From: Octopus vulgaris
Lineage: Eukaryota
Assembly (NCBI GenBank): GCA_951406725.2
Contig: OX597837.1
Span: forward strand, 19,096,001 to 19,160,000
Direction of reading: 5' to 3'
Length of the DNA stretch: 64,000 bases
The translations under genes were made by a program, and so were the position numbers. A model generated the notes under the pieces. That model was not told the origin of the DNA, ran no database searches, and saw only the letters and a program-made list of their open reading frames with translations. Positions 51,386 to 55,014 of this stretch are shown here, one piece after another; the first letter of the stretch is position 1; every line of letters begins with the position of its first letter.

Positions 51386-52253
51386 CCCTTGCCTCTCTCC
51401 TCGCCTCCTACTTCCTCCCACCCATCTCTCCTATCTTGTCCCGACTCCTACTTCTCTTCACTCCTACTTCTCTTCGCTCCTACTTCTCTTCACCCCTACT
51501 CTCTTTCCCTCTTCTCTCTTACTCTCTTTCTCTCTTCTCCCTTTCTCTCTTCTCCCTTACTCTCTTTCTCTCTTCCCTCTTTCTCTCTTCTCTCTTACTC
51601 TCTTTCTATCTTCTCTCTTACTCTTTCACCCTCTCTTTCTCTCTTCTCTCTTGCTCTCTCACCTCACATACCCACCTTCCCCTTCCCTCTTCATTGTCAA
51701 CCCTCCCCATAAGCTCACACCACCCCTACACATTCCTACTTCACCTTCCCTATCCTCCCCATCCCCCATCCCACCCCATCCATCCCCTACATCCTCTCCC
51801 ACATACCCCACCTCTACCTCCACCCACTGCCTACCCACAATCCTCACCTCTACCCTCACCCTCTGCCTACCCACATACACGAATTCTACCCCAACCCTCA
51901 GCCGAACCCACACCCTACCCGTGCTTTCCCCACTCTCGCCTCCCCCACCTCCCAACAACATCACACCACACCACACTACACCATACAACATTACACATTA
52001 CAACACAACACACCATCCACACACCAGCACTGACCAATTCCCATCCCCACATTTTCACACCTACACGCGCACACGCCCAGACCACCAGCCCTCTTTCACA
52101 TGCGCATAGATACTCTCTTATACACACACGCACTTTCGTGTTGGGGGTCATCTTTACTTTGTTATCTCCCCTACTTCTGTCCGGCAGTCAGTCGCCATGA
52201 TAGATCGTTAGCCACTACACACATTTTTTTCTCTCCTTGTTTTTTTCTGTGTA

Positions 52254-52291
52254 TCTTTCTGTAGAAGAGCATAGGCTCGAAACGTAAAAGA
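52254..52291 (+). ncRNA. Minimal type I hammerhead-like motif, variant core
   Basis: tcttt CTGTAGA A gagc-atag-gctc GAAA CG TA aaaga. Confidence 0.6.
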
Positions 52292-52385
52292 CTTTTTCTA
52301 TTCCTGAGCGTTATACTAATACATCTGTTTGTTTTGTACACCACCTGTCTTCGTCTTTTGTTTTTTTCGTAAACTCTCCCTATAT

Positions 52386-52856
52386 AATTAAAAATATTGA
52401 ATTTCTAAATGTCTCAGAGAGACATGAGCGGTGGTGGAGCGATAGAGTGGTCGTATACTGTCAACTCAATGTGACAGTCCCGTAAGGGAATTACACAACC
52501 GCCATTTAGCCCTAGGAAATATCGACGTCTCCTGTCGGCTTTGACACATTTTCTGTGTCCGTATATTTGCAAAGGGGAGGCAATCACCCCCGCAAGCCGG
52601 GACAAAGCACCTGAAGACATATGTTTCTGAGTGTATTGCTCATCGTCAGTTCAGGGTAGCCTGCCTCGCTCGCTGAGATGACTGCAACCTCTCTGCAAAT
52701 ATATCATATTATCAGTAAAATTTATTTACTGATCACCGAAATTAGAAATATTGAATTTCTAAATGTCTCAGAGAGACATAAGCGGTGGTGAAGCAATATA
52801 GTGGTCGTATACGGGACTGTCACATTGAGTTGACAGTATACGACCACTATATCTCC
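52386..52856 (-). mobile_element. Retrozyme-like non-autonomous element (354-bp partial tandem plus inverted end)
   Basis: 52386-52458 is repeated at 52740-52812; 52810-52853 is the reverse complement of 52440-52483; contains an intact hammerhead. Confidence 0.75.
52610..52655 (-). ncRNA. Type I hammerhead ribozyme
   Basis: cctgaa CTGACGA tgag-caataca-ctca GAAA c-atat-g TC ttcagg. Confidence 0.88.
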
Positions 52857-53431
52857 CTATATATATATATGAATATTTTTAACTGATAATATTAACAGTA
52901 GTAACATGGTCGGTTCATTAGGTTTAATAGCATTCAAAGCTACAACATATAAAATTACAACTGAGCTTTAGGCTGCAGAAAAGTCCTAATTCAACCGCCG
53001 GAAGGTATATATTTGTGTGTGTGTGTATATATATATGAATATTTTTATATATATATATATATATATATATATATATATATATATATATATATATATATAT
53101 ATATATATATATACTGGAGGGCTGGCCGGATCTAGTAATCTCAAGATTAATCAGCCGAAATTACTACGATGATCCGGTTCTTGACTGAAGACTGAGGGCT
53201 TCGAATGTCCTGTCCGTGTTTGTTGTATCGTCTTGTAAGTGTTATGCGTTCTTGTCCCAGTTTGTATTTTTCTACATATCATAATAATATATTCCTGGCG
53301 CCACGTACCCTTCTTAACACTTATGTGAGCACATATTCCTATATATATATATATATATATATATATATATATATATATATATATATATATATATATATAT
53401 ATTCAAAATAAGCAACAAGAATGACTCCAGT

Positions 53432-53519
53432 AATTTGGTACAATCGTTTCGTACTACATTTTATTAAATGTTGTAAGTATTACAACAGATTTAAGATGTT
53501 AAGTACTCATCAGCCAATT
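53432..53519 (-). ncRNA. Type I hammerhead ribozyme with extended stem II
   Basis: aattgg CTGATGA gtact..(long hairpin)..agtac GAAA c-gatt-g TA ccaaatt. Confidence 0.85.
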
Positions 53520-54062
53520 ATAGAGGTTTTCCATTAATACAAACATTTTCAAATCAAGTGGCAACATTATAGAGAAGGTAGATATACAGACAAAGATGTG
53601 GATTTAAATTTTAAGAACATATGAGGTAGTGAAGTCCTTCCACTGACTGACTAAGATATGGCTGTTCCTAATTGCTGTAAGGTTAGAAGTAATAAAGATT
53701 TTTTATTTGTAGAAATGGGGTAAAGGAGGTTTCAGAACTCCATAAAAGGAATTCATGTTGGAGACAGCAATTGCCACTAACAAATGCCAATTACTGCTAT
53801 TTGGTGAGAGAAAACTAGGTCAATGTCAAATGGTCTTAATCCCATATATATGTATGTATATATATGTATATATATATATGTATGTATATGTATATATGTA
53901 TATATATATATATATGTATATATATATATATATATATATTTACATATACATACATATATATATATATATATATATATATATATATATATATATATACATA
54001 TATATATATATATATATATATATATATATATATATATATATATACATATATATATATATAAA

Positions 54063-54500
54063 CAAAGCCTTGTGAGTGGATTTGGTAGACGGAAACTGAA
54101 AGAAGCCCGTCGGAGTGGCTGTGTGGTAAGTAGCTTGCTAACCAACCACTTGGTTCCGGGTTCAGTCCCACTGCGTGGCATCTTGGGCAAGTGTCTTCTG
54201 CTATAGCCCCGGGCCGACCAATGCCTTGTGAGTGGATTTGGTAGACGGAAACTGAAAGAAGCCTGTCGTATATATGTATATATATATGTATGTGTGTGTG
54301 TTTGTGTTTGTTCCCCTAGCATTGCTTGACCACCGATGCTGGTGTGTTTACGTCCCCGTCACTTAGCGGTTCGGCAAAAGAGACCGATAGAATAAGTACT
54401 GGGCTTACAAAGAATAAGTCCCGGGGTCGATTTGCTCGACTAAAGGTGGTGCTCCAGCATGGCCGCAGTCAAATGACTGAAACAAGTAAAAGATAAAAGA
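54063..54500 (+). mobile_element. SINE family A preceded by a partial duplicate
   Basis: 54063-54112 repeats an internal segment of the following copy. Confidence 0.92.
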
Positions 54501-54613
54501 TATAGAAAGATATATATAATATATATATATAACAATTGTAGCGTGGAAGGTGTTTATAAGCCATTTAAGAAACACACAAAAACCGTTAGATTCACTTCAA
54601 CATTTAAATTTAA

Positions 54614-54664
54614 TTTGCCAAAATATTTTCGTCGCTTTGAAACCGTGACCTGTTCACTGACAAA
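54614..54664 (-). ncRNA. Hammerhead-like motif with G3:C8 core
   Basis: tttgtca GTGAACA g gtcac-ggtttcaaa-gcgac GAAA a-ta-t TT tggcaaa; overlaps palindrome 54641-54708. Confidence 0.5.
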
Positions 54665-54701
54665 ATTCCGCGCAGTACGGAATATTGTCAGTGAAGAGGT
54701 C

Positions 54702-55014
54702 CGTGGTTAGAGCGTCGAGCTTACGATCGTGAGGTTGTGAGTTCGAATCCCGGACCGGACTGCGTGTTGTGTTCTTAAGTAAGACACTTTATTTCACGTT
54801 GCTCACTCAGCTGTAGAAATGAGTTGCGATGTCACAGGTGCCAAGCTGTATCGACCTTTGCATTTCCCTTGGATAACACAGGTGGCGTGGAGAGGGGAGG
54901 CCGGTATGCATGGGTGACTGCTGGTCTTCCATAAACAACCTTGTCCAGACTTATGCCTGGGAGGGTAATTTTCTAGGTGCAATCCCATGGTCAATCATGA
55001 CCGAAGGGGGTCTC
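54702..55014 (+). mobile_element. SINE family C
   Basis: gtggttagagcg..gttcgaatcc..gacactttatttcacg. Confidence 0.88.

Follow-up and report, generated by a model that had tools for sequence, protein, structure and literature searches.

A four-strand, rearranged hammerhead motif among stacked Penelope-like element ends in a TA-repeat patch of the Octopus vulgaris genome

Five element ends in a TA-repeat patch

The window analysed here is a 64,000-nucleotide (nt) stretch of the Octopus vulgaris genome (contig OX597837.1, positions 19,096,001 to 19,160,000), in which a 2.5-kb TA-repeat patch at window positions 52200..54710 contains five different element ends, four with type-I hammerhead motifs and one, module C, with a rearranged hammerhead. 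A reading made from the sequence alone had described four hammerhead motifs of unrelated flanking sequence within this patch. All four were located at the positions listed below, and each is part of a different repeat family of high copy number (A, B, D and E), with 1,999-2,472 first-look candidates each in the genome, counts which are lower bounds. Two of these families represent ends of Penelope-like elements (PLEs), namely probably of the Neptune type (A) and Hydra-like (D), and two are non-coding elements (B and E). The number of four was incomplete, since the fifth, rearranged hammerhead had been overlooked. The features of the patch are as follows.

48512..52385 (+): A, decayed PLE with reverse transcriptase (RT), CxxC linker, GIY-YIG-like C-terminus, CT-rich 3' untranslated region (UTR) and pseudo-long terminal repeat (pLTR), based on open reading frames (ORFs), Pfam and similarity to the PLE at 10 kb (H)
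52255..52290 (+): hammerhead of A, minimal type I, core CUGUAGA+A (A6U), stem III ACGU, predicted cut after 52286
52386..52853 (-): B, non-coding and retrozyme-like, with 1.2 copies of a 354-nt unit arranged as a partial tandem and a further inverted piece of 44 nt, based on a direct repeat spaced 354 nt
52610..52655 (-): hammerhead of B, type I with canonical core, stem III ACAUAUGU, predicted cut after 52616
53114..53338 (+): C, end of a young, non-coding element with tandem units, truncated on its 5' side, between (TA)34 and (TA)31
53120..53191 (+): four-strand rearranged hammerhead of C
53403..53843 (-): D, 5'-truncated 3' UTR/pLTR of a decayed Hydra-like PLE, 2417 first-look candidates
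53435..53517 (-): hammerhead of D, canonical, long stem II, stem III ACGAUUGU, predicted cut after 53439
54510..54701 (-): E, non-coding element of ~210 nt, here a short 3' end plus an inverted 55-nt piece
54614..54664 (-): hammerhead of E, G3-C8 swap (GUGAACA+G), stem III AAUAUU, predicted cut after 54621

The modules had also been described as bounded by TA runs. The 3' ends do abut (TA)n, but TA runs are not present on both sides of all modules: the 5' side of E joins the inverted piece and a common repeat resembling a short interspersed nuclear element (SINE), and only (TA)3 lies between A and B.

Searches with Rfam gave 33 matches at E<=10 for positions 52150-54800, with no hammerhead among them, and no hammerhead among the best 150 of 259 entries for the whole window. 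A type-I descriptor applied to 1 Mb of grid-sampled genome gave 14 matches, compared with 7, 4 and 6 in shuffled sequences and 4 in the reversed sequence; for matches with a C3-G8 core the respective numbers were 10 compared with 2, 1 and 0, and 1. The motif of module A lies outside this descriptor owing to A6U and was identified by direct reading of the sequence.

A predicted hammerhead fold opened within its core

Units of family C measure 818-896 nt (36 tandem spacings), with 1467 first-look candidates, and the core pattern yielded 1353 exact matches compared with 4 in the control. A type-I reading of module C had no match on either strand. Its predicted fold is built from the following parts.

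53120-24: stem II, 5' strand
53152-56: stem II, 3' strand, followed by GAAA
53125-32 with 53171-78: interaction helix of stems I and II (I/II helix)
53133-39 with 53160-66: stem III
53140: cleavage residue C17, predicted cut after it
53141-46 with 53179-84: stem I
53185-91: CUGAAGA

The order of the blocks is II5'-S-G-C (cleavage block, GAAA block and CUGAAGA), which is non-circular and does not match the circular orders CGS, GSC and SCG of type I/II/III hammerheads. The 5' strand of stem II is found upstream of the cleavage block, detached from CUGANGA, and it is followed by a strand whose partner stands immediately 5' of stem I, where type-SGC hammerheads have their I/II helix. Non-circular hammerheads of types SGC, CSG and GCS were described by Eckert et al. 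2023 (PMC10085705). Module C shares with type SGC the S-G-C order, an intact core, a linker of only few nucleotides between stems I and II, and a putative helix joining the other sides of these stems. In contrast to type SGC, where CUGANGA is contiguous with the 5' strand of stem II, block C is here split between A9 and G10.1, an interruption that was assumed to be impossible in PMC10085705. The SGC ribozymes of that work were recovered from metatranscriptomes, with no example in the genome of a known organism, whereas here thousands of copies of an animal retroelement are concerned. Judged from its sequence, the C fold is a hammerhead opened between A9 and G10.1, at the very joint that holds the additional base of PLE hammerheads (PMC4209133).

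For the alignment, 28 full-length copies spanning several subfamilies were chosen from 83 candidates, with truncated, near-duplicate and some decayed copies excluded. CUGA-GA and GAAA are invariant in 28/28 copies, G10.1-C11.1 is present in 27/28 and U16.1-A15.1 in 26/28. Stems I to III are 96.8% paired, with double-sided changes at 12 of the 14 pairs, compared with at most 46.5% when the stems were slid as a control, and the upstream strand of stem II is 98.6% paired, with 4/5 pairs covarying; these percentages lean upward through the selection of copies, which are moreover related and not independent. For the I/II helix, each of the two clades has its own register, with 64% pairing in either; the helix is covarying, although imperfect in one alignment. 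A strict four-strand descriptor gave 3 matches in 1 Mb compared with 0 in each of 20 shuffled sequences and 0 in the reversed sequence, and a descriptor search detected this arrangement in further families whose stems have other sequences. In these families, the perfect partner of the 3' strand of stem II is likewise situated upstream of the cleavage block.

The same bases could also be read as a classical type-SGC hammerhead, in which the G-rich bases after CUGANGA act as the 5' strand of stem II and the upstream strand is inhibitory or incidental. Copies of the AGGG clade can form a 4-bp stem downstream, and C can pair GGCU with AGCC past a 5-nt spacer. However, this stem II is 73% paired, mostly by G-U, with covariation no better than in shuffles (369/500), whereas the upstream strand shows the pairing and covariation given above and is tracked by the I/II helix; in addition, consensus examples of the Naiad elements discussed below were seen by eye to have no downstream partner. 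We regard the classical reading as very improbable. The four-strand fold, in turn, has strong support with regard to its structure and indirect support with regard to catalysis.

Among 119 listed pattern matches examined in a metagenome scan, one had weak stems, and this match did not have the upstream strand. No prior description of a split four-strand fold was found by title or abstract, a search that left most subscription papers and bioRxiv supplements outside. Further four-strand families of unrelated sequence were seen at L036:646-747 and L263:784-843, the latter resembling a Naiad consensus end. In eight loci from several subfamilies (L268, L085, L318, L319, L326, L330, L332 and L334) a polypyrimidine-YAG sequence resembling a 3' splice site directly precedes the 5' strand of stem II, with its last base adjacent to G10.1; for a possible splicing event rejoining A9 to G10.1, no good donor was seen after CUGANGA and no such joint in the contigs examined.

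Probable relation to Naiad elements

Naiads, PLEs with an N-terminal GIY-YIG domain and a C-terminal RT, have been reported without a canonical hammerhead and only with 'HHR_core' or 'HHR_half_core', the latter being assigned to Naiad_Ovul (Craig et al. 2021, PMC8557442). In File S5 of that publication, 10 Naiad consensus sequences, including Naiad_Obim and Naiad_Ovul, were recognised by eye to terminate in the four-strand fold at their 3' side, among the matches listed for four CUGANGA spellings, a look-up which misses motifs broken across lines; ctenophore and coral entries are presumably among them, as assigned from neighbouring headers. Nematode Naiads have the conventional hammerhead order. 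In the octopus genome, a Naiad_Ovul-like motif has 336 matches, and at one locus (L503) it is located behind a C-terminal RT that has no endonuclease after it. A C-terminal RT before the fold was found only in this Naiad_Ovul-like family, and family C is non-coding.

The four-strand fold is likely the missing ribozyme of Naiad retroelements, and we infer a Naiad origin of family C because it shares this fold with Naiad ends. Family C further resembles Naiads in its (TA)n preference, its 5' truncation and its partial tandems, and differs from them in being non-coding and young.

Genomic 5' ends as a proxy for cleavage

Insertions should start at the cut if the RNA is cleaved, because RT would copy the cleaved RNA. 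Among the first 100 listed C copies, the TA-joined 5' ends of 26 of 27 loci were found by eye at or after the predicted cut (p=1.6e-8). Reverse-strand totals amounted to 733 around the cut, 119 in the 30 nt upstream and 94 in an interval further downstream, which indicates a peak and not a slope, with the restriction that the anchors of the three counts differ in stringency. When 30 copies were ordered by position, 11 started at 0..+15 relative to the cut; an automated tally of the same copies gave 12 at 0..+15 and 2 in -4..-45, with the diverged loci L295 and L299 mis-scored. Other four-strand subfamilies of different sequence start at their own predicted cut (H17+1). The peak of 5' ends just after the predicted cut of C suggests cleavage in vivo, and it is relevant to the debated in-vivo cutting of the transposition template by PLE ribozymes.

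An alternative is that the C fold is conserved but non-catalytic, i.e. a protein-binding signal or a stop signal for reverse transcription, and that the peak reflects a pause or a transcription start. No reads starting or ending at the cut of a PLE ribozyme were seen in PMC11167929, and the peak is weak in the Naiad_Ovul-like family (2/20 copies start <=15 nt after the cut). Against this alternative, the catalytic bases are invariant while the stems drift, and subfamilies that differ in sequence have their boundary at H17+1; furthermore, the downstream pairing partners would already have been copied when RT arrives. We consider a non-catalytic role unlikely and favour cleavage.

For the type-I families, steps at the cut were counted by eye in 27/35 (A), 34/39 (E) and 30/37 (D) cases, and B offered only 3 loci; the steps of A, E and D are modest and confounded by AT microhomology and by closeness to the 3' end, and most A and E copies run through the ribozyme site. 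Two further observations were discounted as evidence, namely a rise in depth near the cut of C in contig data, which stems partly from diverged subfamilies, and missing cover over the B ribozyme in three presumed-RNA runs.

Preference for (TA)n and probable nesting of insertions

The enrichment at (TA)n that had been proposed was tested, and the 3' ends of the families abut TA far above background. TA directly follows the 3' end in 41/57 cases for A, 16/22 for D, 23/31 for C, 18/21 for H and 4/5 for F, compared with 3.5% of random positions and 2/46 SINE tails; the A figure is taken from a repeat count, as the first counts with the A and short-E motifs were noisy. TA is preferred but not the exclusive target, which is AT-rich, as indicated by the long end of E (19/54) and by B (7/22). 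Genome-wide, there are ~1000 (TA)6+ runs and ~47 such modules per Mb, and in the 1-Mb grid sample 27/47 modules lie <=150 nt from a TA run compared with 18% of random positions. A microsatellite bias of Neptune and Naiad is published, and octopus Naiad and Hydra elements prefer (TA)n (PMC8557442 text and File S1). The proposal of a "diverse (TA)n-targeting PLE/retrozyme system" holds insofar as the ends are PLE or PLE-dependent (retrozyme-like) and TA-enriched, but the ends belong to several clades stacked in one target, not to one system.

With respect to clustering, none of 100 grid-sampled 10-kb stretches contained more than two of the families inside 2.5 kb, compared with five in the patch, a post hoc comparison since the patch was selected after the fact. 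This selection and the genome-wide densities of modules and TA runs would fit a chance pile-up of common repeats without target-driven nesting. However, the absence of comparable clusters from the sampled stretches and the direct contact of the 3' ends with TA speak against such a pile-up, which we consider unlikely. The cluster probably arose by nested insertion into a target that renews itself.

Between TA runs at 52870-53005 lies a 136-nt segment with no match in the other loci examined, and TATATGAATATTTTT is present on both of its flanks, perhaps as a target duplication. Several 5'-truncated or inverted ends (window positions 11843, 53338, 53842 and 52856) reach the TA run via an extra C or CC.

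The type-I families and their core variants

Element A measures 3.9 kb and its pLTR accounts for 1999 first-look candidates. Its RVT_1 match in Pfam (E=1.4e-05) is below the curated cut-off, this copy has no GIY-YIG match, and similarity to H extends out to residue 442. By its linker, A would be Neptune/Nematis-type. RT, C-terminal GIY-YIG and a CX2-5CxxC linker, the features of endonuclease-containing PLEs, were found for A and H, for A by the RT match, the linker and the H-like C-terminus, and so was the insertion structure of such elements, i.e. a hammerhead pLTR, a tail, an inverted 5'-truncated copy and an AT-rich target. The broken frames of a longer D copy (L062) include the C-terminus of an RT, a CxC motif and a terminus resembling an endonuclease, and by eye they resemble the published Hydra alignment.

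Family B has 2472 first-look candidates, including partial tandems and inversions. Family E has a fixed 5' end and two 3' ends ~60 nt apart, and target duplications of 8-14 nt were seen by eye in several of 30 copies. As in non-LTR (long terminal repeat) retrozymes, non-coding tandem units that each carry a ribozyme were found for B (354 nt), C (818-896 nt) and E (170-nt array). B, C and E share with animal non-LTR retrozymes (PMC7229834; bioRxiv 10.64898/2026.07.22.740005) that they are non-coding, ribozyme-bearing, partly tandem and PLE-like in their ends; they differ in that the ribozyme of C is rearranged and not type I. No ORF partner for B, C or E was seen among the loci examined. The arrays of E (L221:3200-4450; L254) comprise tandem arrays of 170-nt units with a (TA)n spacer and a 426-nt array including flanking DNA, and the two ends of the element are complementary over ~7 nt.

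The tiny palindromic or near-palindromic stems III reported for the four motifs (ACGU, ACAUAUGU, ACGAUUGU and AAUAUU) are present, except that ACGAUUGU is a variant of the window copy of D; the majority of aligned D copies have the perfect palindrome ACGAUCGU. Regarding natural core variants, which had also been suggested, the family alignments bear them out as fixed in families and not as decay of single copies. U6 is found in 25/26 aligned A-family copies, the window copy included, and the canonical CUGACGA occurs in a sister family whose stem II arms are identical (L131, L175). On these grounds A6U is a family trait, and decay of one copy was ruled out. G3 and C8 are present in most of 33 aligned E copies, and A3-U8 is fixed in the nearby PLE H.

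A possible novelty of the type-I/(TA)n part was not upheld, as this biology is published (PMC4209133, PMC8557442). It has been described that PLE pLTRs carry minimal type-I hammerheads of palindromic form, that an additional base may occur at 9/10.1 and that U3-A8 is a natural variant (PMC4209133), and A, B, D, E and H resemble those hammerheads in the palindromic minimal stem III and the pLTR location, often in the extra base, and in carrying a natural 3-8 covariant. They differ by the family-fixed G3-C8, A3-U8 and A6U cores. U3-A8 and A6C are among the natural variants in section 8 of PMC3088659, and C3G/G8C was made by mutation in PMC11167929. In the literature accessible to us we found no report of family-fixed G3-C8, A3-U8 or A6U as natural, although Lunse et al. 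2017 may cover them, and no prior description of natural G3-C8 by title or abstract, with most subscription papers outside this search. With regard to the type-I motifs, the finding stays within ordinary PLE biology and offers a useful set of natural core variants.

Proposed explanation

We hold it to be quite probable that the patch represents five independent 5'-truncated insertions, likely by Penelope-like enzymes, into one AT-rich/(TA)n target, each with its ribozyme-bearing end retained, and that the four-strand hammerhead of C likely self-cleaves and likely derives from Naiad. According to this explanation, a GIY-YIG endonuclease would nick AT-rich DNA, and reverse transcription would start at either of two sites, 35-200 nt downstream of the ribozyme, a step suggested by the tails and the fixed 3' ends and by the analogous case of PMC11167929. 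Reverse transcription would usually stop early and leave only the pLTR, the truncation itself being observed, and each insertion would leave TA on both sides and renew the target. RNA of the C type would be cut after C17 (53140) by the four-strand fold acting as a monomer, and RT would then run off the new 5' end, which may give rise to the observed peak of genomic 5' junctions 0-15 nt past the cut. The motifs of A, B, D and E, with their tiny palindromic stems III, would need dimers or protein help (PMC4209133, PMC11167929), and the weaker steps at the A, D and E cuts would fit partial cleavage.

Several points weigh against this explanation, in addition to the copy selection, the unequal anchors, the modest type-I steps and the weak Naiad_Ovul-like peak mentioned above. 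Family C was not joined to a Naiad ORF, and a Naiad RT probe matched only L503 and L485 among the loci. None of 8 regions behind diverged RT matches contained an intact four-strand motif. Ribozyme cleavage was also dispensable for PLE insertion in vitro (PMC11167929).

With somewhat less confidence, we favour a wider interpretation, in which the four-strand fold would be an active further hammerhead topology, open at A9/G10.1 and monomeric, and the ribozyme of many Naiads across ctenophores, cnidarians and molluscs. Its cut would set the 5' end of the reverse-transcribed RNA, and truncation maps could serve as a read-out of in-vivo activity, including that of the core variants G3-C8, A3-U8 and A6U. 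If true, this would add a hammerhead architecture that the six-permutation scheme excludes by assumption, and animal genomes would contain thousands of copies of a non-circularly permuted ribozyme. The interpretation would also explain why descriptor searches scored Naiads as ribozyme-free, and would imply that other 'ribozyme-less' elements hide split cores. The interpretation given in the sequence-only reading is largely known, and the lasting interest lies in the four-strand hammerhead.

Second site and other features of the window

A similar pattern had been noted at 9.6-13.8 kb and is present there in the form of the PLE H and families G and F, with copies of F and H altered in the core: the window copy of F carries A9G, and the window copies of H carry an altered GAAA. 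Further features of the window are listed below.

9630..11843 (-): H, second PLE, probably Neptune-type, with inverted pLTR copy, Pfam GIY-YIG above and RVT_1 below the cut-off
near 9868-9881 and 11643-11656: hammerhead of H, A3-U8 core, based on 22 aligned copies
46740..46791 (-): 5'-truncated copy from a second family of four-strand hammerheads, of which the 3' half is present

The pattern of this second four-strand family gave 8982 exact matches compared with 16 in the control. In the 22 aligned copies of H, a G-C/A-U exchange occurs in stem I, and many have an altered GAAA. At 11880-12110 lies the abundant fold-back family G, whose hammerhead-like motif has a 2-bp stem II, with U4C in several copies. 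Elsewhere in the window, an isolated 5S rRNA gene or pseudogene is located at 34881-34999 (-) (Rfam, 104 bits), and a 1.2-kb (CCG)n-rich degenerate tandem repeat at 31945-33132 has long open frames on both strands.

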